A stretch of DNA of 64,000 bases from Chelatococcus sp. (lineage in GTDB: Bacteria; Pseudomonadota; Alphaproteobacteria; Rhizobiales; Beijerinckiaceae). This document shows positions 25,996 to 46,862 of the stretch, one piece after another. Each line of letters starts with the position of its first letter. Within the stretch, counting starts at the first letter, position 1. Where the stretch lies: assembly GCA_003248805.1 (NCBI GenBank), contig QFQY01000014.1, positions 41,000 through 104,999 of the forward strand, in the 5' to 3' direction. A program made the translations under genes and the position numbers. The notes beneath the pieces were generated by a model. That model was not told the origin of the DNA and searched no databases. It worked only from the letters and a program-made list of their open reading frames with translations.

Positions 25996-26159
25996 AGGTC
26001 GAGGTTGTTATGTTATAACAAAACATGGTAACGACCGCGTCATGTGCAGTCCTCCCTTGATCCCGGTCCTCCCGACGCGCCCCGCAAATCCTCCCGGCCT
26101 CGCTTCCGCCTCGCGGATGCAGGCGCATTTCGGGTCTTGTGCGTCGTCCGGGCGCGGAC

Positions 26160-26345
26160 CTATGATCGACAAGTCGGTTCCCGAGAGGGATCAAAAGGGA
26201 ATCCGGTATCCGTTCTTCGAACGGGAAACCGGAGCTGCCCCCGCAACTGTGAGCGGCGAGCGCCGTTCGTCTGGGCCACTGGGTTTTCCTGGGAAGGCCG
26301 GACGGCGCAAGGACCCGCGAGCCAGGAGACCTGCCGACGCAGGAT
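26160..26345 (+). promoter_or_regulatory. Cobalamin (AdoCbl) riboswitch
   Basis: Conserved core elements appear in order: GGTTCCC…AGGGA…AAAAGGGAATCCGGT…GCTGCCCCCGCAACTGTGAGCGG…GCCACTGG…GGGAAGGC, then the B12 box GAGCCAGGAGACCTGCC at 26318-26334. It sits ~170 nt upstream of the next ORF. Boundaries are approximate. Confidence 0.85.
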
Positions 26346-26513
26346 CGTACGTAGACCGGGCGGGGTGCACCGGCGGCGGATTTGGCGACGCGGGGCGCGG
26401 CGGCGAGGTTGATCGTCCGGCGCATGCCCCGTTGCGGCGAGTTCCCGACTGTTCCCCGGAGACTTGGGAGCAGTCGTCTTGAATCGTTGCCGTCATTCCA
26501 TCTCGACCGCGGA

Positions 26514-34231: not shown

Positions 34232-34307
<76 letters not shown>

Positions 34308-34418: not shown

Positions 34419-34838
34419 TCAGGGCTCCTCGTCGCCCTCGATATCGCCGTCGATCAGGTCGGCGACGTCGTCGTCGCCTTCCTCGTCTTCCTCGAGGAAG
34501 GTGTCGTCGTCCTCGCCGGCGATGTCGTCCTCGATCTCGATGTCGTCCTCGCTGGTAACGACGGCTTCCTTCTCGGTGGCCTCGGCATCGGCCTCGTCGA
34601 GCGAAACGATCTCGACCGCGCCGTCGGCGGCCTCGGCCTCTTCCTCGTCATCCTCGGGCTTCGCGGCCGCGGCGGCCTTCGCCTGCGGCTCGAACATCGA
34701 ACGCGGGAACGACTGGCCCGTATAGGGCGAGACGATCGGATCCTTGTTCAGGTCATAGAATTTGCGGCCTGTCGTCGGGCAGACACGCTTCGTTCCCAGT
34801 TCCGGTTTCGCCACTGCGTCGGACCTTCGATCTGTCAT
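34419..34838 (-). CDS. FYDLN_acid-family protein (TIGR02300-like; zinc-ribbon N-terminus with acidic tail)
   Basis: 139 aa. GTKRVCPTTGRKFYDLNKDPIVSPYTG, followed by a long D/E-rich tail. Confidence 0.8.
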   Translation of the reverse strand: MTDRRSDAVAKPELGTKRVCPTTGRKFYDLNKDPIVSPYTGQSFPRSMFEPQAKAAAAAKPEDDEEEAEAADGAVEIVSLDEADAEATEKEAVVTSEDDIEIEDDIAGEDDDTFLEEDEEGDDDVADLIDGDIEGDEEP

Positions 34839-37068: not shown

Positions 37069-37893
37069 ATGACGACGGAGGTGGCGATGCGGCGTTGGCT
37101 GTTCGGTCTCTCGTGTCTGGCGGCAGCTCTGGCGACGAGTTCGCCCGGCGACGCCCAGCAGGCGACGGCGCCTCCCGAGGAGGTCGACGTGGCGCTCGTG
37201 TTGGCCGTCGACGTGTCCTATTCGATGGATCTCGACGAGCTCGCGCTCCAGCGCAACGGCTATATCGAGGCGTTCCGGGCGCGCGAACTGCACGACGCCA
37301 TCGCGAAGGGCGCGCTCGGCAAGATCGCGGTGACGTATTTCGAATGGGCCGGCGGCAATTTCCAGCACGTCATCAGGCCCTGGAAGATCATCGACGGGCC
37401 GGCTGCCGCGATCGCCTTCGCCGAGGAGCTCGGCGAGGCGCCCACCCGGCGCGGACGGCGGACCTCGATCTCGGGCGCCATCGATCTCGGCGTCTCGCTG
37501 CTGGAGCAGTCCAACGTCGTCGCCCTGCGCAAGGTGATCGACATCTCCGGCGACGGCGCCAACAATGACGGGCGCCCGGTCACGGCGGCGCGGGACGAGG
37601 CGAACGCCAAGGGCATCGCGATCAACGGCCTGCCGGTGATGCTGAAGCAGGCCAGCTATTTCGACATCGACAATCTCGACGTCTACTATCAGGACTGCGT
37701 CGTCACCGGCATCGGCGCCTTCGTCATTCCGATCCGCGAGCGCCATCAGTTCGTCGACGCGACGCGCACCAAGCTGCTGCGCGAGATCGCCGAGGCGCCG
37801 CCGGAGGCCACGGTGCAGAAGGCCCAGAGCTCGGCGCCCAACTCCTCCTGCCTCGCGGGCGAGCGCCAGTGGCGCGACCGGATGGGGAATTGA
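37069..37893 (+). CDS. DUF1194-type (vWA-like) secreted protein
   Basis: Signal-like N-terminus, then VDVALVLAVDVSYSMDLDELALQRNGY…ISGDGANNDG…GIAINGLPV. The start is 37069 or the ATG at 37087. Confidence 0.7.
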   Translation: MTTEVAMRRWLFGLSCLAAALATSSPGDAQQATAPPEEVDVALVLAVDVSYSMDLDELALQRNGYIEAFRARELHDAIAKGALGKIAVTYFEWAGGNFQHVIRPWKIIDGPAAAIAFAEELGEAPTRRGRRTSISGAIDLGVSLLEQSNVVALRKVIDISGDGANNDGRPVTAARDEANAKGIAINGLPVMLKQASYFDIDNLDVYYQDCVVTGIGAFVIPIRERHQFVDATRTKLLREIAEAPPEATVQKAQSSAPNSSCLAGERQWRDRMGN

Positions 37894-37936: not shown

Positions 37937-39280
37937 TCAGGTCTCGCGGAAGGCGCGGGCCATGCTGTCGCGCAGCGGCTGCATCAGATATTCGAAGAAG
38001 GTGCGCTCGGTCGTCTGGATATAGACCTCCGCCGGCATGCCCGGCGTCGGCTCGAAGCCGCGAACGCCGGCGACGCTCGCGCTCTTGAGCCTGACGCGGA
38101 CGACATAGACGTCGGGCGCCGACGGGGCCGAGCGCATCTTGTCGTCCGGCAAGGCGTCGGCCGAGATGTAGACCACGACGCCCTCGACCATCGGCGTGGT
38201 GCGCTGGTTCAGCGCGGTGAGCCGCACGGCGGCGGTCTGGCTGTGCTTGATCTTGTCGATGTCCTGCGGCCTCACCCGGGCTTCGATGACGAGCTCGTCC
38301 TGCAGGGAGACGATCTCCATGATCGCCTTGCCCGGCTCGATGACGCCACCTGGCGTGTGGTAACGCAGCTTCACGACCGTGCCCTTCACCGGGGCGAGGA
38401 TGCGTGTGCGCTCGAGCTGGTTGCGCATGCCGCGGCTGCGCTCCCGGACGTCGTTGAGCTCCGCGCTGATGTCCTGGAGCTGTTCCGAGGCGACCTTGAT
38501 CGCCTGCTTGCGGACGCCTTCCATCTGCTCGAGCGAACGGGCGATGCGCTCGCGCGAATCGCCGATATCGCCCGTGATGCGCCCGATCTCGCCCTGGATG
38601 TTGGCGGCGCTGCGCTGGAGGGACAGGACCTCGGGCTTGCGGATGTAGCCGCGCGCAAGCAGGGCCGCCTTGCCTTCCAGCTCCTCCTTGAGCAGTTCCG
38701 CCTGGCGATGGAGCGAGGCGACCTGGACCCGACTTCCGGCGATGCGCTCCTCCAGCCCGTCGATGCTCTTCTGGTAGGTGGCGACGTCGCTCGCGATGTT
38801 GGCGCGGCGAGCCTCGAAGGTCGCTCGCTGGGCGGCGAGCAGCGTGGCGATGTCGGAATCGCCGGCAGCCGCAGTGAGATGCGCAGGAAAGACGAGGCTG
38901 TCCTGCCCGGCGACTTCCGCCCGCAGCCGGGCCTCGATCGCCTCGGCGCGCATCTGCCGCAGATGCAGCCGCCGCAGCTCCGCCCGCGGGGAGACGTCGT
39001 CGAGCATGATCAGCGGCTGGCCGCTCTCCACCACATCGCCCTCGCGCACCAGAATCTGGCCGATCACGCCGCCTTCCAGATGCTGGATCGTCTTGTTCTG
39101 GCCGTTTGTGGTGAAGACGCCGGTCGCGATGACGGCGCCCGAGATCGGCGCCGTGTTGCCCCAGACGCCGAAGCCCATCACCGTCGCGGCCAGCACCGCC
39201 ACCCCGCAGAGCTTGGCCCAGCGGGCGTTGCGCGGCACGCCCTGGTACCAGGGCTGGACATCGAGCGTGAGGGCGGACAT
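37937..39280 (-). CDS. Type I secretion system membrane-fusion (periplasmic adaptor) protein, HlyD family
   Basis: 447 aa. One N-terminal TM segment (AKLCGVAVLAATVMGFGVWG), QHLEGGVIGQILVREGDVVESGQPL (lipoyl/barrel hairpin), a long coiled-coil region, and ILAPVKGTVVKL. Confidence 0.9.
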   Translation of the reverse strand: MSALTLDVQPWYQGVPRNARWAKLCGVAVLAATVMGFGVWGNTAPISGAVIATGVFTTNGQNKTIQHLEGGVIGQILVREGDVVESGQPLIMLDDVSPRAELRRLHLRQMRAEAIEARLRAEVAGQDSLVFPAHLTAAAGDSDIATLLAAQRATFEARRANIASDVATYQKSIDGLEERIAGSRVQVASLHRQAELLKEELEGKAALLARGYIRKPEVLSLQRSAANIQGEIGRITGDIGDSRERIARSLEQMEGVRKQAIKVASEQLQDISAELNDVRERSRGMRNQLERTRILAPVKGTVVKLRYHTPGGVIEPGKAIMEIVSLQDELVIEARVRPQDIDKIKHSQTAAVRLTALNQRTTPMVEGVVVYISADALPDDKMRSAPSAPDVYVVRVRLKSASVAGVRGFEPTPGMPAEVYIQTTERTFFEYLMQPLRDSMARAFRET

Positions 39281-39311
39281 CGGCGGGGCCTCCGGCGGGT
39301 TTTCGCTGCTG

Positions 39312-41351
39312 TCAGCTGGGCTGGGGCTGGCCGCCCTCGGGCGTGCGCTGCCCCGTGATCAAGGGCAGCACGTCGTCGCGTCGGCCGATCATCTGGAGGC
39401 CGCCGTCCTTGATCATCATGATCTTGTCGACGCTGCGCAGCAGGGTCGGGCGCTGCGTCACTGCGACGATGGTCATGCCCCGCGCCTTGGCCCGCTCGAA
39501 GGCCACGGCGAGCGCCTTCTCGCCGAGGACGTCGAGATTGGAGTTCGGCTCGTCGAGCACGACCAGCCGGGGATTGCCGAAGAAGGCGCGGGCGAGGCCG
39601 ATGCGCTGCTTCTGGCCGCCGGAGAGCGGGCTGCCGTCCATGCCGATCTGCGTTTCGTAGCCCTGGGCGAACTGCGAGATCATCTCGTGGATGTCGGCGA
39701 TCTCCGCGGCCTCGAACACCTCGGCATCGGTAGCGTCCTCCCGCATGCGGGCGATGTTGGCCTTGATCGAGGCCGGGAAGAGCTGCATGTCCTGCGGCAG
39801 GTAGCCGACGCTCTCGCCGAACTGGCGCGGGTCCCAGTTGCGCAGATCCATCATGTCGAGCCTGACATTGCCGGCCGTCGGGTTGATCGAACCGACGAGC
39901 ATGCGCGCCAGCGTGGACTTGCCGCAGCCGGACGCCCCGACGATGGCGAGCGAGTCGCCCGGTTCCAGGCTGAAACTGATGCCGTTGAGGATGACCTTCT
40001 TCGTCGGCGGAGGCACATAGAGGATGCGCTCGACGTCGAGCTTGCCCGCAGGGCGCGGCAGGCGCAGCCGGTCGAGGTTGAGCGGAGAGCTCTGCAGCAG
40101 CGCCTGGACCCGCGAATAGGCGGCCCGCGCATGGATGAAGCTGCGCCAGCCCTCGATCGTGCCCTCGAGCGGGGCGAGCGCGCGCCCGGCCACGACGGAG
40201 GAGGCGATCACCATGCCGCCGGTGAGCTGGCCGGACAGCGAGAGCCAGGCGCCCCAACCGAGCATCGCGATCTGGGTGGAGAGCCGGAAGAACTTGGAGA
40301 TGCCGGTCATCACGACATTGCGGTCCTGGGCGCTGACCTGCGCCCGCAGCGACTCCGCCGTCTCGCGACCCCAGATCACCACGCCCTCGGGGATCATGCC
40401 CATGGCGTTGATGACCTGCGCGTTGCGCGACATCGCCTCGGTCTGCAGGTTCGCGCGCGTCGAGTACGCGCTGGCCCTGGCGAAGGGCACCGCCGTGAGC
40501 TGCTGGTTGATATAGGCGAGAAGGACCAGCACCAGCGCGGCGACGGCAACGATATAGCCGAGGTCCGGATGGATCAGGAACACCGCCAGCAGATAGATCG
40601 GCGCGGTCGGCGCATCGAGCATCGTCAGGACGACCGGCCCGGTCAGAAAACTGCGGATCTGCTGAAGGTCCGCCAGCACCTGGAATTCGCGGCTCGAGCC
40701 GGTCTGCGCCGCCTTGGCCGCGGCTGCGAGCACCGGCGCGCCGAGCCGGCTTTCGACATCGGCCGCGACGCGGGTGAGGATGAAGCGGCGCATCATGTCG
40801 AGCAGGACATGGGCGAGGATCGCGATCATGACGATGATCGAGAGCATCACCAGCGTATCGAGGCTGCGGCTGGTCAGCACCCGGTCCGACATCTGGAAAA
40901 GGTAGATCGGCACGGCGAGCACGAGCGTGTTCACCATCACCGAGAACAGCGCCACGATCAGGAGATTGCGCCGCGCATCGGCCAGCCCCTTGCCGAGCAC
41001 CTGCCGGAAGTCGCGGTCCCCGAGGCGCTTCTCGATGGGCGAACCGCCGCCGCCTCCGCCGCCCCGGCCTCCGCCCCCGCCATGGGAGGGCGGCGCGCCG
41101 TTGCCGGGGCTCACCGAGGGAGCCTTCGGACGCATCGTCGCGGGGCGCCGGGGCGCCGGAGCCTCGGCAGGCGCTTCGGCGCGGGCGGGCGCGGTCTGCT
41201 CCGAAACGGGGTCGTTGCTGTTCGCGACCGCCCCGCGCCTCATCTCGTCGAGGCCCATTTCCTCGAGGCCCATGGCCCGGGGCAGGACCGGCCCCATGGG
41301 GGCGGCGGTCGATCGCGGCGACGCCGCGCTTGTCATGGGGTCGTCATGCAT
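39312..41351 (-). CDS. Type I secretion system permease/ATPase (PrtD/HasD type, no C39 peptidase domain), with an unusual low-complexity N-terminal extension
   Basis: The TMD begins …ARRNLLIVALFSVMVNTLVLAVPIYLFQMSDRVL. The NBD has GASGCGKST, LSGGQKQR and VLDEPNSNLD. About 100 aa upstream of the TMD are A/P-rich and include GGGGGRGGGGGGG. The alternative start at M73 (41135) would still retain the Gly tract. Confidence 0.85.
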   Translation of the reverse strand: MHDDPMTSAASPRSTAAPMGPVLPRAMGLEEMGLDEMRRGAVANSNDPVSEQTAPARAEAPAEAPAPRRPATMRPKAPSVSPGNGAPPSHGGGGGRGGGGGGGSPIEKRLGDRDFRQVLGKGLADARRNLLIVALFSVMVNTLVLAVPIYLFQMSDRVLTSRSLDTLVMLSIIVMIAILAHVLLDMMRRFILTRVAADVESRLGAPVLAAAAKAAQTGSSREFQVLADLQQIRSFLTGPVVLTMLDAPTAPIYLLAVFLIHPDLGYIVAVAALVLVLLAYINQQLTAVPFARASAYSTRANLQTEAMSRNAQVINAMGMIPEGVVIWGRETAESLRAQVSAQDRNVVMTGISKFFRLSTQIAMLGWGAWLSLSGQLTGGMVIASSVVAGRALAPLEGTIEGWRSFIHARAAYSRVQALLQSSPLNLDRLRLPRPAGKLDVERILYVPPPTKKVILNGISFSLEPGDSLAIVGASGCGKSTLARMLVGSINPTAGNVRLDMMDLRNWDPRQFGESVGYLPQDMQLFPASIKANIARMREDATDAEVFEAAEIADIHEMISQFAQGYETQIGMDGSPLSGGQKQRIGLARAFFGNPRLVVLDEPNSNLDVLGEKALAVAFERAKARGMTIVAVTQRPTLLRSVDKIMMIKDGGLQMIGRRDDVLPLITGQRTPEGGQPQPS

Positions 41352-41366
41352 GATTCCGGCAGCCCC

Positions 41367-43358
41367 TCAGCTCAGCATCTGCGACATGAGATGGTCGTTG
41401 GCGCTGCCGGAGCAGCCGCCGTAACCGGGCTCGGGATGGCCGCCGTCATCCTCCGGCTCCGAGGCGAAAACGGCGAGTTCCGGAGCGAGCAGGCTGGTGT
41501 CGTGGATGACGATCCGGTCGTCATCCGTGACGATGTTGGCCTGCACGAGAATGCTGGCCTCATAGGCATCGCCGCCGAGATATTTGGAGGTCGAGAGCGC
41601 GCCCGGGTCGACGATGCGCGCTTCGTTCAGCATCGTGTTGCCGCCGGTTGAGACGCCCTGTCCGCTGTCGTCGGTCGTGCTCGCCTGAACGCTCTGGTCG
41701 ACGTCGGACATCACGTTGACCTGCGTGATCGTGTTGACGTCGTAGTAGTCGCCATTGACGTAGAGGATCTTCAGCGTGCCGGAAGCGCTGCCCGTCAGCT
41801 GCCAGTCGGCGTCGGGCGTCAGGCGCGAGACATTCTGGTCCAGACCCTCCAGCAGGTTGCGCTGGGCGTCGTTGAGCGCCTTGAAGGCCGCGCTGTCATA
41901 GGTCGTGATGCCGGCGTCGTTGACGAGCCGGTTGAAGCCGGCCGAGACCTCCGCGCCGGTGTCGTCGGCGTTGCCTGCCGAGACGATCTTCGCGACGTCG
42001 CTGTCCAGCATGACGTTGTACTGGAAGATCCAGTCGGCCCGGTGGTAGGAGCCGCCGACGATGATGATGTCGTAGGAGTCGAAGCCGGAGACCTTGGCGA
42101 GATTGTCCTGGTCGTTGCCGCCCGTCCGGGCGTCGAAATAGGTGCCCGCCGTCACCTGGACCGAGCGGTCGTTGTCGTCCAGCCCGTTGAACTGGACCAC
42201 CGACTTCACGTCGTAGAAGTCGCCGCGAAAGACGTCGACCTGCCAGTGCGGCGTCGCGGCTGCGCCACGATGCGCCAGGGCGATGTCGTGGACGACGAAC
42301 TCCGCGATGTTGTGGACCTGGTTGCCGTCCGCCCGGACGAAAGGCGAGGCGGAATCGCTCCGGGCGATGTCGACCCGGTCGCTGTCCGTCAGGATGTTGA
42401 CCTGCACGATGCCGCGGCTGAAGAAGTAGTCGCCGCCGATCATCAGGGAGCCGCTCGCCTCGTTCGCGTCGACGATGAGCGCGGCGTTGACTTGCGTGTT
42501 CTGGCCCGCCTCGACCACGGTCGCGACGCCCTGTGCCGGGGCGGGTCCGTCGATGCGGCTCTCCGCCTGCGCGGCTGCGGCCTCCGTGGGGACACGCCAC
42601 GGCGCGATCTCGAGAGGGTCGATGACCGGCAGCGGCGCGTCGCTGACGACGCCGTCGACGATGCGGCCGACAGGCGGCGTGGCGGTGGCGCCCTCGTCCG
42701 GCGCCTCGCCGCTCGCGCGCCAGCCGGCATCGCGGGCCTCGACCGAGGCGATCAGGGACGTGGCGTCGCCCGCCGCATGGCGCGGCAGCGTTTCCGGAGT
42801 CTCGTCGAGGGCCCGCGCGAGCATTTGCGAAATCTCGAGAGACGTATCGACCGCGGGCGGGACGACGGGCTCTCCGTCCGCGCCGCGCAGGCCCTGCGCG
42901 ATCAGCGTGTCGCGATCCTCCATCGCATGGATCTGCTTGACCGCGACCAGGCTCTCGTATCCGCCCTCCTCGTAGGTGACGGCGATGTGCCGCGGCACGG
43001 CCAGGCCGGGACCATCCGCCTCCTGAAAAGACTGCGGCTGCAGCGCCGCCGGCTTGTAGGGCAGGGGGGTGGGCACCACGCTGCCGCCGGGCATGGGCAC
43101 GCCGGGGATCGCCATTCTTGGAATCGGAATCAGATGGCCGGGATCGAGGGGCGGCGACTCGGGCAGGAGCACCGGGCGTGACGAAAGATCGTCGAAGTCC
43201 GGGCGGGCGCCGGCGTCGCGGAGCATGGCCCCCGGTTCGTCCGGCGGACGGACCGCCGGCGCGCCGTCATAGATTTCAGAGGAACGGGCGAGCGCATCGG
43301 AGATGTGCAGATAGCCCGCGAAGTGCCAGATGGTTTCGGTGAAACCGGCCGCGTTCAT
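41367..43358 (-). CDS. Large repeat protein (663 aa from MNAAGF…), probable T1SS-associated protein; no RTX nonapeptides and no Sec signal
   Basis: ORF 41367..43490. The likely start is ATG (complement of 43356-43358). The N-terminal half is proline-rich. The C-terminal ~335 aa contain five degenerate modules G-x-N-x3-N-x-A-x-I … GGDYY-x4-I-x-Q-x-N-x-(L/M)-x-D-x-D. It ends 15 nt before the ABC gene ORF. Confidence 0.7.
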   Translation of the reverse strand: MNAAGFTETIWHFAGYLHISDALARSSEIYDGAPAVRPPDEPGAMLRDAGARPDFDDLSSRPVLLPESPPLDPGHLIPIPRMAIPGVPMPGGSVVPTPLPYKPAALQPQSFQEADGPGLAVPRHIAVTYEEGGYESLVAVKQIHAMEDRDTLIAQGLRGADGEPVVPPAVDTSLEISQMLARALDETPETLPRHAAGDATSLIASVEARDAGWRASGEAPDEGATATPPVGRIVDGVVSDAPLPVIDPLEIAPWRVPTEAAAAQAESRIDGPAPAQGVATVVEAGQNTQVNAALIVDANEASGSLMIGGDYFFSRGIVQVNILTDSDRVDIARSDSASPFVRADGNQVHNIAEFVVHDIALAHRGAAATPHWQVDVFRGDFYDVKSVVQFNGLDDNDRSVQVTAGTYFDARTGGNDQDNLAKVSGFDSYDIIIVGGSYHRADWIFQYNVMLDSDVAKIVSAGNADDTGAEVSAGFNRLVNDAGITTYDSAAFKALNDAQRNLLEGLDQNVSRLTPDADWQLTGSASGTLKILYVNGDYYDVNTITQVNVMSDVDQSVQASTTDDSGQGVSTGGNTMLNEARIVDPGALSTSKYLGGDAYEASILVQANIVTDDDRIVIHDTSLLAPELAVFASEPEDDGGHPEPGYGGCSGSANDHLMSQMLS

Positions 43359-43448
43359 GACACGATCCTGAGGGCTGCCACGGGCATCCGGCGATGGCGC
43401 TCGCAAGGAACGCCTTGCATGGCCGGACGGGCCGTGGAGAGACGCAAA

Positions 43449-43516
43449 GGGCCGCGCGGCGGCCTGGCACCGCGCGGCCCGACTCGACATCCGGCCCGAA
43501 GACCGACGGGGTCTTC
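43449..43516 (-). terminator. Two stem-loops immediately downstream of the Q/N-rich gene (candidate partial terminator/attenuator or RNA-stabilising structures)
   Basis: GAAGACC-gacgg-GGTCTTC at 43498-43516 starts 1 nt after the stop codon. GGGCCGCGCGG-N10-CCGCGCGGCCC at 43449-43480 is a perfect 11-bp stem. There is no U-tract. Confidence 0.4.
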
Positions 43517-43517
43517 G

Positions 43518-44357
43518 TCAAAGGGCGTCGTTGATGTCGCCGCCGACGACCTGCAGGTCGACGGAGTTGAACTGGATGTTCGCGCCCATCGCAATGTGCT
43601 GGGTGAAGGCTTCCTGCGTGATCGAAGCCGCGGCGCTCGCGGTGCCGACGCCCGAGAAGTCGCCATCGTCGCCGGTGATCGCGCCGACGTTGGAGGTCGC
43701 CTCGCCACCCCAGGCCTTCGCCGTCATCGAGAAGTCGCCCACGGAGCTGGGATCGTGCGAGCGGCCGAAGCTCTCGGCGTCGAGCCCACCGGCGGCGTAG
43801 GACACCGAGGCGCCGCAGAGCGAGTCGTTGTCGGTCAGGTTGCTGACCTGATCGAGATTGAAGTTGGAGCCCGTGGTCGTGAGCTGGCTCACGACATCCG
43901 GCATCACGATCGACTGGCCGAGGTCGCTGATGTTGTCGATGTCGATCGCGTCGTTGTCGGACGGCACGCCGCTGTAGTCCGCGGAGATACCGAGATCGAC
44001 GTTGACACAGACGTTCACCGCCGTGTCGACCGTGTTCTCGACATGGTTCTGAACGTCGTTCGTGTTGGTGTTCGCGTTCTCGTTGCCGTTCTCGCTGTAG
44101 TTCAGGTTGCCATTGGCGTTACCGTTGGCGTTGCCGTTCAGATTGCCGTTGGCGTTGCCGTTGACGGCAGTGTTCCAGACGCTCGTGTCGACCGCCTGGC
44201 CGGCATACTGCGACTGGCCCTGGCCCTGGTAGGAGCCCTGGCCCTGGGCCTGACCTTGCCCCTGACCCTGGCCCTGCAACTGGGCCTGCAGCTCGGCCTG
44301 AGCCTGAGCCTGATCCTGGCTCGGATCATACGGTTTCGGGTGCGACCTGTTGCTCAT
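43518..44357 (-). CDS. Low-complexity Q/G- and N/G/A-rich repeat protein (279 aa), candidate type I secretion substrate
   Basis: Starts MSNRSHPKPYDP (ATG complement of 44355-44357), preceded by GGGAGAG. AQAQAELQAQLQGQGQGQGQAQGQGSYQGQGQSQYAGQ is followed by NGNANGNLNGNANGNANGNLNYSENGNENANTNTN. There is no signal peptide. The C-terminus is …GANIQFNSVDLQVVGGDINDAL. Confidence 0.7.
   Translation of the reverse strand: MSNRSHPKPYDPSQDQAQAQAELQAQLQGQGQGQGQAQGQGSYQGQGQSQYAGQAVDTSVWNTAVNGNANGNLNGNANGNANGNLNYSENGNENANTNTNDVQNHVENTVDTAVNVCVNVDLGISADYSGVPSDNDAIDIDNISDLGQSIVMPDVVSQLTTTGSNFNLDQVSNLTDNDSLCGASVSYAAGGLDAESFGRSHDPSSVGDFSMTAKAWGGEATSNVGAITGDDGDFSGVGTASAAASITQEAFTQHIAMGANIQFNSVDLQVVGGDINDAL
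44076..44320. repeat. In-frame short tandem DNA repeats encoding the N/G/A and Q/G tracts
   Basis: Reiterated GTTGCCGTT/GGCGTT units lie at 44076-44168. Reiterated CTGGCC/CTGACC/CTGAGC hexamers lie at 44196-44320 (plus-strand reading). Confidence 0.8.
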
Positions 44358-44905
44358 GACACTCTCCCGTTGGTGATGTCGGAGCGTCGTCGAAAGACCC
44401 CATCGCATCTCTTCTGTGACGCGAAAGTGGTACCTCTTCGAACACTCCTGATATCCTGTTGCGGTTCATTTGTTGCGGTGCCGGCCACTTGTAAAAATCG
44501 GGAAAACACCGCTCTCGACTGTCGTCCGGATAGATTTGGGTCGCTAATACCAGGTCATGGCGTCCTCCCATTCGCTTCGTCCCGACCGCCGAGCGCGCCG
44601 CCGATCCCTTGCCGGGATTTCTCTTTCGACGCTTCGCGGAGGATATGAAGTAGTTATTTGTGGTTAGCGCCGCTCGAATGGCGTGTCGATTTCAGTAAAA
44701 AAACGAAGTTGCGCAAATCCCTTAAGCGGATTTGCGTATCGCTTCTGAGCTCAGCGAGATTAACGACTCGGCAGATGCTCGTTTTCTTGAGCCGAGAATT
44801 CAACCATGCTATCGAAGCGTCAACTTTGATAAGCCGTACCCATCGCCGACGGGTCGTTGTCTTTTCCCGACCCGACCAGAAAAAGACGGGGCGGAGGAGG
44901 AAGCC

Positions 44906-45724
44906 ATGTGCGGATCAGGGAAATTCCGCTGCGAGGCGGAGGCCTATCTCTTTGTCGAAAGCCTCTCCTGGGATGGCAGCCCGCGCTGCCCGCACTGCGG
45001 CGAGCGTTCGCGGCTGGGCCGCCTGCGGGGCCGCAGCACCTCGCCCGGAACCTGGAAATGCTATCGTTGCCGGAAGCCGTTTTCCGTGCGCATCGGCACC
45101 GCGTTCCACAACAGCCATGTGCCGCTGCATGTCTGGCTGCAGGCGCTCTATCTCATGGCCGCCTCGGGGGGGCGCGTCAGCGTCCATTCGCTCTCGCAGG
45201 TGCTGATGGTGTCCCAGCGGACGGCCTGGCACCTCAAGCAGAGGATCGCCGCGAGCTTCGAGGCGCTCGCTCCAGACGGGACCGGAAAGGCCGCGGCGCC
45301 GGCCGGCGATGTCGATCTCGCTCTCACGCCACAGCCGGGCGAGCCGGGCGAGCCCTGGTTGAACGTCAGCCGCTACGAGCGCTTCCGGCAGGCGGCCGAG
45401 GCGAAAGGCGGACCCGAGACGCGGCCGCTCTTCCTGGCCGGCCTGCACGGCCTGCTGGGGCACAAGCTCCAGGCCGCGCCGCGCGGCGAGGAGCGAGACG
45501 AAGTCCAGCTCGAGCTTCTGCTGGAGGCCCGGCCCGAGCGTGATCGCTCGCTGCCGGCTCACGCAGGCGCGCTCCTCAGCAGCGGCCTTCGGACAGCGGG
45601 TCCGTCACATGCCGATCCCACAACGCCTGAAGATGGCCGCCATGTTCGTGCGCAGCCGCCGCATCCGTTTCCGAGCCGGCATCTGAACCCGCGAAATATC
45701 GGCTCGCGTCTCCACCCGTTCTAG
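44906..45724 (+). CDS. IS1595-type transposase N-terminal zinc-ribbon/HTH domain protein lacking a recognisable DDE domain
   Basis: ATG 44906 is preceded by GGAGGAGG. …SPRCPHCGERS…WKCYRCRKPFSVRIGTAFHNSHVPLHVWLQALYLM…VSQRTAWHLKQRI resembles the Zn-ribbon N-terminus of IS1595 transposases. No VE.DE.Y.GG-type catalytic region follows. The last ~150 nt overlap a convergent ORF and lose the GC3 bias. Confidence 0.55.
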   Translation: MCGSGKFRCEAEAYLFVESLSWDGSPRCPHCGERSRLGRLRGRSTSPGTWKCYRCRKPFSVRIGTAFHNSHVPLHVWLQALYLMAASGGRVSVHSLSQVLMVSQRTAWHLKQRIAASFEALAPDGTGKAAAPAGDVDLALTPQPGEPGEPWLNVSRYERFRQAAEAKGGPETRPLFLAGLHGLLGHKLQAAPRGEERDEVQLELLLEARPERDRSLPAHAGALLSSGLRTAGPSHADPTTPEDGRHVRAQPPHPFPSRHLNPRNIGSRLHPF

Positions 45725-46112
45725 ACGCCAGCGAGGCGTCGATGCTCTGCAGCGAGGCAAAGAAGGCCGAGCCGGCCGCCGCCCCCTCGGCGAAGGCCGT
45801 GTCTCTGGAACTCGACAACAGGAGGATCTCCTCACCGATCAGTTCCGGCCTCGCCCCGGTCATGGCGGCGAGGACGCTCGTCTGGACCGAGGCGAGCGCA
45901 TGCTCGGGAAGACGGCCGCCCGCATGCCTCGCCATCAGCGTGACGAGAGCGGTGAGGAAGCCGAGGGTGCGGGGAAGTGGGCGGCCGGGCATCGCCGAGG
46001 CGGGGTCCTCGTCCGCCCGGAAGGCGGAAGCGGCCCGGCCGGTGCGCAAAAAGGGCGCGAGCCTGGCCGAGATGGCCTTGCTGACGGATCTGGCTCGCAG
46101 CAAGCCAAACAT
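45576..46112 (-). CDS. Hypothetical protein (178 aa)
   Basis: MFGLLRARSVSKAISARLAPFLR… It has GC-rich third positions through to the stop. No family was recognised. It converges on and overlaps the 3' end of the previous ORF. Confidence 0.45.
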   Translation of the reverse strand: MFGLLRARSVSKAISARLAPFLRTGRAASAFRADEDPASAMPGRPLPRTLGFLTALVTLMARHAGGRLPEHALASVQTSVLAAMTGARPELIGEEILLLSSSRDTAFAEGAAAGSAFFASLQSIDASLASRTGGDASRYFAGSDAGSETDAAAAHEHGGHLQALWDRHVTDPLSEGRC

Positions 46113-46280: not shown

Positions 46281-46862
46281 ATGAACCGCTCGTCCTTGCC
46301 GCCGCCGCCGGATTTCGCGGCGCTCGAAATGGCGGCGCAGGCCGGCTCGGACGAGCGCCAGCGCTTCCTCGCCCTGATCGGCGACCTCAATTTCGCCTGG
46401 GCGAACAATGAGAGCCTCCTGATCTACCTGCTCATGCTTCTGGCCGGCGTCGACGAGCGGAAGGCGGCGATCATCCACGCGACGCTCAATACGACGCGGG
46501 CCAGGCTCGACCTGATCCAGCGCCTCGCCAAGATCGGCCTCCCGGACGGCATGGAACGAGGCGAGCTCGAGGGCATCGTCGATGCGTTCACCGCCGCGAC
46601 GCGGCTGCGCAACGATCTGATGCACGCGACTTTCGTGATCGGCAGCGGCGGCGCCTTCACCCATACCCACAGCATGAAGCTGCAGGAGGCGGGAAACCGC
46701 CTGCGCTTCGGCACCCGCCGTCTCCTCGACGAGGCGAGGCTGACCGAGATCCGCAAGGCGGTTCAGGATCTCAAGGCGTTGAACCGGCGAATCTGGGGCT
46801 TCCTGCCGGTTCTCGAGGAGGCACTCGGCAAGCCGGGCGGGCAGGGCCCCGCTGCCGGTTGA
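46281..46862 (+). CDS. Hypothetical helical protein (193 aa)
   Basis: The ATG at 46281 lies within track ORF 45900..46862. MNRSSLPPPPDFAALEMAAQAGSDERQRFLALIGDLNFAWANNESLLIYLL… No family was recognised. Confidence 0.5.
   Translation: MNRSSLPPPPDFAALEMAAQAGSDERQRFLALIGDLNFAWANNESLLIYLLMLLAGVDERKAAIIHATLNTTRARLDLIQRLAKIGLPDGMERGELEGIVDAFTAATRLRNDLMHATFVIGSGGAFTHTHSMKLQEAGNRLRFGTRRLLDEARLTEIRKAVQDLKALNRRIWGFLPVLEEALGKPGGQGPAAG

Follow-up and report, generated by a model that had tools for sequence, protein, structure and literature searches.

A conserved PrtD-type secretion cluster of Hyphomicrobiales and its two putative non-RTX cargo proteins

Much is understood about the type I secretion of RTX proteins, and much less about that of cargo of other kinds. 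A gene cluster on the minus strand of a Chelatococcus sp. contig raises the question of what a type I secretion system (T1SS) exports when the two genes in the cargo position resemble no known substrate. The cluster lies at 37937-44357 of a stretch of 64,000 nucleotides (positions 41,000 to 104,999 of contig QFQY01000014.1, assembly GCA_003248805.1), which is called the window here. A preliminary description made from the sequence alone had proposed four genes in this interval, and analysis of the open reading frames (ORFs) of the window confirmed all of them in place and on the minus strand. In order they encode the 279-residue small putative cargo (SP), the 663-residue large putative cargo (LP), the ATP-binding cassette exporter (ABC) and the membrane-fusion adaptor protein (MFP). 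The comparative data and the sequence properties described below make it probable that SP and LP, or at least one of the two, are cargo of the adjacent T1SS; the case for both is somewhat less strong. The genes, their main parts and the evidence for each are as follows.

37937..39280, minus strand: MFP, HlyD-family type I secretion membrane-fusion (adaptor) protein, 447 residues (TIGR01843; Pfam HlyD_3 and HlyD_D23)
39312..41351, minus strand: ABC, PrtD-type type I secretion permease/ATPase, 679 residues, with its core at residues 123-662 (TIGR01842)
40986..41351, minus strand: N-terminal extension of ABC, residues 1-122 (alignment of 15 cluster ABC proteins)
41367..43358, minus strand: LP, 663 residues, no known family (AlphaFold2 model; 747 clusters of relatives)
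43284..43358, minus strand: conserved N-terminal peptide of LP, residues 1-25 (homologue alignment)
41505..42512, minus strand: five-module beta-repeat domain of LP, residues 283-618 (hidden Markov models, alignment, AlphaFold2)
41370..41486, minus strand: disordered C-terminus of LP, residues 625-663, a putative uncleaved T1SS signal (predicted disorder, conservation)
43518..44357, minus strand: SP, 279 residues (family alignment; census)
43521..43940, minus strand: conserved C-terminal domain of SP, residues 140-279 (invariant residues in the family alignment)
44358..44730, minus strand: AT-richer region upstream of the SP gene, probable promoter and 5' untranslated region (G+C profile)

The start codons of the preliminary description are right, because three lines of evidence agree on them. 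Ribosome-binding sites precede the ATG of SP at 44357 (GGGAGAG) and that of LP at 43358 (AGGA), the N-termini of SP and LP homologues line up with the chosen starts in the family alignments, and independent gene calls on near-identical metagenomic contigs give proteins of 279, 663 and 679 residues. Longer starts, which would give a 296-residue SP and a 707-residue LP, were ruled out on the same grounds. The intergenic gaps measure about 160 nt between SP and LP, 15 nt between LP and ABC, and 31 nt between ABC and MFP. The G+C content is approximately 0.58-0.63 in the region upstream of SP (44358..44730) compared with approximately 0.68-0.70 in the genes. A consensus scan detected no sigma-70 consensus in this region, and no terminator was found by consensus scan between the SP and LP genes, where one would have implied differential expression. 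The start codons of SP and LP are located in near-identical contexts, GTGTCATGA on the coding strand (window 43355-43368 and 44354-44367). This 14-nt direct repeat may be a shared translation-initiation signal or the trace of an old duplication.

The export machinery was assigned with curated profiles. ABC scored 688.7 bits against TIGR01842 (PrtD; cutoff 510), with profile positions 1-541 of 544 covered, and MFP scored 382.8 bits against TIGR01843 (HlyD; cutoff 208.65). On the HlyB-type model ABC reached 271 bits, and the HlyB, LssB and bacteriocin models were all far below cutoff. The closest solved relative of ABC in the PDB was Aquifex PrtD (5L22, E 2e-111), compared with 6e-58 for E. coli HlyB. 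Pfam gave no Peptidase_C39 match, indicating that ABC has neither a C39 peptidase nor a C39-like domain. The assignment of a PrtD-type exporter and a HlyD adaptor was therefore upheld, and in the class features examined this is ordinary PrtD/HlyD-class machinery. Furthermore, no TolC/OEP-family gene was present in the cluster, as had been noted before, and in four annotated loci none lay less than 10 kb away. Many PrtD-type systems rely on an unlinked TolC.

ABC carries an extension at its N-terminus. Residues 1-122 are P/A-rich and of low complexity, with a poly-Gly run at the end that is followed by SPIEKRLGDRDFR directly before the first transmembrane segment; in the window protein the end of the extension reads GGGGGRGGGGGGGSPIEKRLGDRDFR. 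When 15 ABC proteins of the cluster, taken from different genera, were aligned, the extension was seen to vary in sequence and in length, from about 90 to more than 220 residues. Where the alignment covers the junction before the first transmembrane segment, the extension ends in poly-Gly (up to about 10 G) and then xP[LI]xxRxxDxxF[RK]. The poly-Gly extension was also found in the ABC proteins of census loci L001, L003-L005 and others. The extensions of Methylobacterium, Microvirga and Salinarimonas carry an extra motif, LSxGLRxLDALYxxxAGxxYIG.

A gene-neighbourhood census was carried out with one genome per GTDB species. An LP relative was present in 127 genomes, and the best 80 of these were examined by tblastn with the window proteins. 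The 80 comprised Bosea, Bradyrhizobium, Afipia, Nitrobacter, Tardiphaga, Pseudorhodoplanes, Xanthobacteraceae, Microvirga, Methylobacterium/Methylorubrum, Salinarimonas, Roseibium and related metagenome-assembled genomes (MAGs). In the loci with enough flank the order SP, LP, ABC, MFP on one strand was kept, in at least 10 genera of Hyphomicrobiales. ABC followed LP in 77 of 77 such loci and MFP followed ABC in 74 of 74. SP preceded LP in 75 of 77 by tblastn, and in 76 of 77 when the upstream ORFs were inspected and the divergent Microvirga copy in L078 was counted. Linkage of both proteins to T1SS genes, for which the preliminary description had proposed such a census, thus holds strongly. 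The same arrangement was found in four loci reached from the SP side, those of Nitrobacter Nb-311A, Methylobacterium DM1, B. paxllaeri and Blastochloris tepida, and the LPs of these four are 32-33% identical to that of the window. A deposited protein from a Chelatococcus sp. MAG (PZU92722.1) is 99% identical to LP, in keeping with an origin of the window in a member of Hyphomicrobiales near Bosea and Chelatococcus. An exhaustive profile search collected the LP family into 747 clusters at 50% identity, 477 of them at E <=1e-30, nearly all full-length proteins of 620-730 residues. Their source names are all 'hypothetical protein' except for one automatic 'Type I secretion protein'. Rather than being a local oddity, the system is found widely in Hyphomicrobiales.

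Both putative cargo proteins are acidic and poor in cysteine. LP has a pI of 4.25, a net charge of -57 and 1 Cys, and SP has a pI of 4.05, a net charge of -28 and 2 Cys. Neither had a match above noise in Pfam, NCBIfam or the PDB sequences, whether searched as single sequences or as profiles. The Pfam and NCBIfam scans took in SP, LP, 21 LP homologues and two further genes of the cluster, famA and famB, which are described below; matches at noise level (RPC5_C, EBNA2, pheganomycin, FokI) were set aside. The calcium-binding nonapeptide GGxGxDxUx and the looser GxGx[DN] were both found zero times in LP and SP, and there was no PF00353 match. The sequences of the N-termini were also read directly. 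That of LP, MNAAGFTETIWHFAGYLH, has no basic n-region, hydrophobic core or twin arginine, and that of SP, MSNRSHPKPYDPSQDQAQ, has no Sec/Tat signal. On all these points, namely the lack of a characterised family, of RTX repeats with the expected absence of PF00353, and of a Sec or Tat signal, the preliminary description proved accurate.

The structure of LP was predicted with AlphaFold2 from a 32-sequence alignment. The model had a predicted local distance difference test score (pLDDT) of 72 and a predicted TM-score of 0.70, with 240 residues at pLDDT >=90. Residues 1-25 constitute a conserved peptide, MxxGGxTExIWHFAGYLxIxD, in which H12, F13, G15 and L17 are invariant and I10, W11 and Y16 nearly so. 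A Pro-rich linker of about 95 residues follows (26-119), and pLDDT is below 50 over residues 1-119. Residues 120-260 are predicted to form an alpha/beta domain, and residues 279-620 are predicted to be almost all-beta, with five 23-residue strands and pLDDT mostly above 90.

The beta region coincides with five repeat modules, M1 (283-331), M2 (about 344-400), M3 (411-458), M4 (474-557, with an insert) and M5 (570-618), that follow the pattern GxNxQxNxAxIxD ... GGDYYxxxxIxQxNxLxDxD. A hidden Markov model (HMM) built from M1, M3 and M5 alone recovered the second half of M4 with an E value of 3e-5, and the five copies originally counted stand. A degenerate sixth copy, QIHAMEDRD, occurs at residue 142, inside the N-terminal domain. 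In 21 homologues, mostly about 30-50% identical to the window LP, the Q of every QxN is invariant, and the invariant or near-invariant residues are nearly all G, N, Q, D, I, L and Y. The conserved residues occur at i, i+2 spacing, for example I544-Q546-N548-M550-D552-D554 and G572-N574-N578-A580-I582-D584, and the modules were therefore read as beta strands with one conserved face. If the modules were stacked in register, this face would give ladders of Gln, Asn, hydrophobic residues and paired Asp.

The last 39 residues of LP are conserved yet predicted to be disordered (pLDDT <50). They comprise PELVAF, an acidic linker and a hydrophobic tail, and E627, F631 and D655 are invariant. Across the family, R and K together make up 1.4% of the last 20 residues, the penultimate residue is always L or M, and the end follows the pattern D-x-h-x-S-x-h-h-x. 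Two other ideas about LP were rejected. An outer-membrane beta-barrel in place of TolC was ruled out by the absence of a signal peptide, the extreme acidity and the lack of a barrel-like fold match, and a LapG-type cleavage site at residues 2-5 (NAAG) was ruled out as it is not conserved in homologues.

When the LP model was compared by Foldseek with the PDB and BFVD, nothing was found at E <0.01 and the TM-scores were approximately 0.05, so that no fold could be assigned. The weak top matches were the FapC amyloid fibril, SufD, tapirins and pectate lyases, all beta-solenoids, together with polygalacturonase and pectin methylesterase. Their beta-solenoid flavour is a hint only. The LP model is confident and beta-rich, but it matched no solved or viral fold, and the SP model could not be used for a fold search.

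The SP family has a common architecture, in which a short variable N-terminus is followed by a Q tract, an N tract and a conserved domain of about 140 residues. In the Q tract, Q occupies each second position (QGQLQGQAxLQGQ...). In the N tract, N occupies each second or fourth position, as NGNANGNLNGN in the window, DNKVDNKL in Nitrobacteraceae and DNSDNS in Microvirga. In the DNA, the low-complexity tracts of SP correspond to periodic repeats of 12 and 24 nt. The C-terminal domain carries FNLDQVSNLTDND, a motif in common with LP, and QEAFTQHIAMGANIQFNS, and the last residues are VVGGDINDAL. The motifs of the domain across the family are GNxFNIDQVNNLVDND, FSMxAxAxGG, QEAFTQxIVMGANIQFNS and the terminal ...VVGGDxxDxL, and the invariant residues are Q158, F166, Q170, F209, G217, Q248, A250, F251, Q253, I255, G258, N260, Q262 and N264. 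The AlphaFold2 model of SP was of low confidence throughout (pLDDT 43), and the protein is not confidently folded as a monomer. In the last 20 residues of the family D, L, T, V, I and F account for 49% and R, K, E and P for 2.7%. The C-termini of SP and LP are compatible with the C-terminal features of RTX T1SS substrates (PMC8861453).

Two variants of SP were observed in the census. A Bradyrhizobium MAG (L023:7813-9816) contains a 668-residue SP ORF in which the conserved C-terminal domain, about 140 residues long, occurs four times in tandem and the Q-x-Q tract is missing; the domain therefore behaves as an autonomous unit. The SPs of two Microvirga loci (L063:8888-9913 and L078:8901-9890) have long DNS/DNSDNS repeats in place of the Q-x-Q and N-x-N tracts and retain the C-terminal motifs (…NQNISxGANIQY…VVGGDSS…), and one of them was missed by tblastn.

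The preliminary description had pointed out short motifs in common between SP and LP. The SP sequence F-x-L-x-Q-x-N-x-L-x-D-x-D puts the same residues on the same strand face as I-x-Q-x-N-x-[LM]-x-D-x-D of LP, GANIQFN of SP matches GxNxQxN of LP, and the terminal GGD of SP is the point at which the LP modules go on with GGDYY. The strict pattern [ILVMF].Q.N.[LM].D.D was searched in 15,114 six-frame ORFs (84 loci, 2.3 M residues). There were 191 occurrences in 78 LPs, 63 in 61 SPs and 0 in all other ORFs. Because the pattern was defined post hoc from the same data and the SPs are not mutually independent, its restriction to SP and LP is taken as one suggestive observation. Additionally, when an HMM of the repeat core was used, 24 of the 27 non-LP matches were SPs, the best of them with an E value of only 0.36.

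The conserved unit is larger than four genes. It includes famA, famB, a regulator and, in Nitrobacteraceae, a protein with an acetyltransferase domain and tetratricopeptide repeats (GNAT-TPR). Three of the additional genes are found beside the operon in the window.

45576..46112, minus strand: famB, unannotated, 178 residues (found by tblastn in 53 of 70 loci)
46281..46862, plus strand: famA, unannotated, 193 residues (70 of 70 loci)
44906..45724, plus strand: Zn_ribbon_IS1595-domain protein, 272 residues, the length also of its gene call, divergent from the SP gene (PF12760, E 6.6e-9)

The famA and famB genes are paired and divergently transcribed, no more than about 3 kb from the operon, and in some lineages the pair is inverted as a unit or located downstream of the MFP gene. 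Neither product had a Pfam or NCBIfam match, and no transmembrane segment or signal peptide was seen when the sequences were read directly. FamA of the window shares 47-60% identity with that of Nitrobacter or Methyloceanibacter and is thus more conserved than the putative cargo. The Zn_ribbon_IS1595 gene, the 3' end of which overlaps that of famB by about 150 nt, was located by tblastn within the cluster or next to it in 19 related loci, of which 16 are Bosea-type and 3 are Salinarimonas. Most Bosea-type clusters have it between the famB and SP genes, and in Salinarimonas it is near famA/famB. The 272-residue protein has only the zinc ribbon of an IS1595 transposase without the catalytic domain, and may be a domesticated DNA-binding regulator. 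A LuxR/GerE regulator adjoins the cluster in 45 of 70 loci, notably in Nitrobacteraceae.

The GNAT-TPR protein, of 500-635 residues, combines a FemAB-like GNAT domain (Acetyltransf_6, PF13480) with TPR repeats and was found in 40 of 70 loci, again notably in Nitrobacteraceae. Its gene directly follows MFP in Bradyrhizobium, Afipia, Nitrobacter, Tardiphaga and Blastochloris (e.g. L001:16458-17978; also L004 and L005), and it is located upstream in Pseudorhodoplanes and some Xanthobacteraceae. An ORF of 64-67 residues follows it in L001 and L004. Neither the window nor the Bosea, Microvirga and Methylobacterium loci have the GNAT-TPR gene. Its product may modify the cargo.

In the window, DUF1194, cmk and aroA flank the cluster at one end, and a LysR regulator flanks it at the other. 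The DUF1194 gene (window 37069-37893, plus strand; PF06707, E 7e-74) is directly downstream of the MFP gene and convergent with it. It holds the place taken by the GNAT-TPR gene in Nitrobacteraceae, and tblastn found it adjoining the cluster in no other locus. Elsewhere in the window are a cobalamin riboswitch (26158-26352, plus strand; RF00174, 117 bits), unrelated to the operon, and a tRNA gene (34235-34307, minus strand; RF00005, 67 bits), which is sited between the gene of an FYDLN-type acidic protein (34419-34838) and a stretch of lower G+C content (about 0.60) at 32.5-34 kb.

What, then, does the system export, and for what purpose? The argument that the upstream genes encode cargo is based on invariant synteny and on cargo-like sequence properties. 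SP and LP are acidic and Cys-poor, they have no N-terminal signal, their C-termini are nearly free of R and K, and the LP gene ends only 15 nt from the ABC gene. The interpretation considered best is that a dedicated PrtD/HlyD T1SS exports SP and LP as co-acting structural, non-enzymatic components of the cell surface or matrix, and we put its chances at about even. A structural role and a partnership of LP with SP are favored because conservation is concentrated in repeat-structural positions, the two proteins constantly co-occur, they have a strand motif in common, and SP is apparently unfolded alone. We infer secretion, cation dependence, the LP-SP interaction, the structural role and any function as fibre, adhesin or matrix.

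The steps of such a process can be outlined. SP and LP would be unfolded in the cytoplasm, where their disordered C-termini, free of basic residues, would be recognised, and they would be exported C-terminus first through ABC, MFP and a TolC-like outer-membrane channel that is presumably borrowed from elsewhere in the genome. Outside, the five LP modules would fold into beta structure and the I-Q-N-L-D-D face of each long strand would stack into ladders. Paired Asp residues at the strand ends would be electrostatically unfavorable if stacked, and a cation would therefore be needed, which may point to a folding switch triggered by Ca2+. If the paired Asp ladders need Ca2+ or another cation, folding would not occur before export and the repeats would be a functional counterpart of RTX repeats. 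SP, which would contribute one I/L-Q-N-L-D-D strand and one GxNxQxN strand, would then dock onto the LP scaffold or extend it.

It is conceivable, although rather doubtful, that the product is a T1SS-dependent curli-like cross-beta fibre. LP would then be a five-rung solenoid of Q/N/Asp ladders with a Ca2+ switch, its Pro-rich linker of roughly 100 residues and its N-terminal peptide would tether it in or at the channel, its free edge would template the polymerisation of SP, which has one matching rung, and famA, famB and GNAT-TPR would control or modify the process.

Several observations weigh against export of SP and LP as co-acting structural components. T1SS cargo does not usually have an N-terminal peptide as strongly conserved as that of LP, which could point to a cytoplasmic partner or role, and the last 20 residues of LP do not have the depletion of E and P seen in RTX C-termini. 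The strand register (the ladders) and the cation sites are deduced from sequence periodicity only. The short motifs in common between SP and LP are real and conserved, but homology of the two proteins is without statistical support, since hhalign gave an E value of 0.023 and a probability of 2%, and the full-module HMM gave E >=6 in addition to the result of the repeat-core HMM. The motif could have arisen by convergence or have a different purpose, for instance in recognition. Moreover, the interpretation does not account for famA, famB and GNAT-TPR, and no literature on the SP and LP families was found in a search limited to openly accessible papers. The interpretation originally offered is supported in part: the PrtD/HlyD operon, the non-RTX upstream proteins of no known family and the linkage to T1SS genes were sustained, and the fibre, adhesin or matrix function is a proposal.

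The possibility was considered that only one of the two proteins is exported and that the other is a cytoplasmic or envelope accessory factor, such as a chaperone, secretion plug, regulator or assembly factor. For example, SP may be the cargo and LP the accessory protein, the N-terminal peptide of which docks to the ABC extension or to famA/famB. The conserved N-terminal motif of LP and its folded alpha/beta domain at residues 120-260 are atypical of classical cargo, the family-specific extension of ABC could be a docking site, and the gap of about 160 nt between SP and LP, compared with 15 and 31 nt in LP-ABC-MFP, places LP operonically closer to the machinery. However, LP has all the hallmarks of cargo, being acidic and nearly Cys-free with a conserved, disordered, R/K-free C-terminus and a hydrophobic tail, the ten conserved Asp residues that it carries in its repeated DxD pairs are difficult to account for in a cytoplasmic protein, and Pfam and NCBIfam gave no match to a chaperone-like family. 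An accessory role for one partner is judged to be unlikely.

Alternatively, LP could be an enzyme, such as a glycanase or lyase of exopolysaccharide, that is secreted and built on a beta-helix scaffold, and SP could be an unrelated co-secreted protein or a modulator. T1SSs of Rhizobium export glycanases, the substrates of PrsDE being PlyA and PlyB, and there are pectate lyases, polygalacturonase and pectin methylesterase among the weak Foldseek matches. Those matches all have E >0.1 and TM-scores of about 0.03-0.12, however, and no glycoside hydrolase or lyase family was detected in Pfam or NCBIfam. The Methylobacterium DM1 cluster adjoins glycosyltransferase genes and the Blastochloris cluster adjoins Glyco_hydro_39 genes, but such polysaccharide-gene neighbors are not conserved across genera in the census. 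The invariant residues of LP are repeat-structural (G, N, Q, D), without a conserved catalytic-type constellation outside the repeats, and an enzymatic function is considered improbable. The chances are poorer still that the cluster is a bacteriocin or toxin system in which the toxin is SP, LP or both, with immunity or regulatory proteins encoded by famA and famB, two small unannotated genes that are always linked to the cluster. Export by an ABC and MFP pair is typical of Gly-rich, acidic, Cys-poor proteins such as microcins and rhizobial bacteriocins. However, ABC lacks the C39 peptidase domain, no double-glycine leader is apparent, and the famA and famB products have no transmembrane segment or signal peptide. 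In addition, FamA at 47-60% identity is better conserved than the putative toxins at approximately 31-33%, the reverse of the usual toxin-immunity arms race, and the cluster keeps its synteny throughout whole families, apparently by vertical inheritance, and is located in the window beside the housekeeping genes aroA and cmk. All three alternatives fit the conservation pattern less well than does the export of SP and LP as surface or matrix components.

The host genera, among them Bradyrhizobium, Nitrobacter, Methylobacterium, Afipia, Microvirga and Bosea, include bacteria of soil and water, are of agricultural and environmental importance and several hosts are genetically tractable, and the system could explain an unrecognised surface structure of these bacteria. 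The PrtDEF, AprDEF and HasDEF systems are similar in that ABC and MFP exceed the family cutoffs, the cargo genes are directly upstream of ABC, and the putative cargo is acidic, Cys-poor and without a signal peptide. The cluster differs from them in having two co-conserved cargo candidates that are non-RTX and outside the known protease, lipase and hemophore families, a long disordered poly-Gly extension on ABC, no outer-membrane gene in the cluster, and the extra genes famA, famB and GNAT-TPR. LP resembles RTX proteins in its repeated Asp motifs, which are located in the C-terminal half upstream of a putative C-terminal signal, and in its predicted beta-rich structure, and folding triggered by a cation after export is plausible. 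In contrast to the Gly-rich nonapeptides, however, its I-x-Q-x-N-x-L-x-D-x-D sequence is set in modules of 45 residues, and the predicted strands are of 23 residues compared with the short strands of the beta-roll. The Asp-containing repeat of LP could be an alternative to the RTX calcium switch.

With curli (CsgA/CsgB) and Fap (FapC/FapB) the cluster has in common a pair of proteins with a common short Q/N strand motif, the smaller of which is disordered alone. The five imperfect repeats of LP have the i, i+2 conservation of Q/N ladders, and the weak top Foldseek match was the FapC fibril 9u4u (E 0.14, TM 0.04-0.12). There was no match to the Curlin_rpt or Fap families, the neighboring genes are those of a T1SS rather than of Sec with CsgG or FapF, the modules are about twice the length of a curlin repeat, and LP has an additional N-terminal domain and linker. 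Were the curli-like reading true, the system would add a further class to the functional amyloids or fibres of bacteria, and it would be a new way, independent of RTX repeats, of folding proteins once type I secretion has exported them. S-layer proteins (RsaA, SapA, SlaA) and LapA-like adhesins are also acidic, Cys-poor, repeat-rich cargo with structural roles at the surface, as predicted here, and the distinct conserved N-terminus of LP could act as an anchor, as in RsaA or LapA. No similarity of sequence or fold to these proteins was seen, RTX repeats are absent, adhesins of the LapA type are far larger than LP, the two-protein arrangement is atypical, and no LapG (BTLCP-type) or LapD-type genes were found among the annotated neighbors in four loci. 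The secretion system itself is thus a known one. What is new are the two putative cargo families, the repeat of LP with its confidently predicted beta fold that has no match among solved or viral structures, the unusual extension of ABC, and the additional conserved, unannotated genes.

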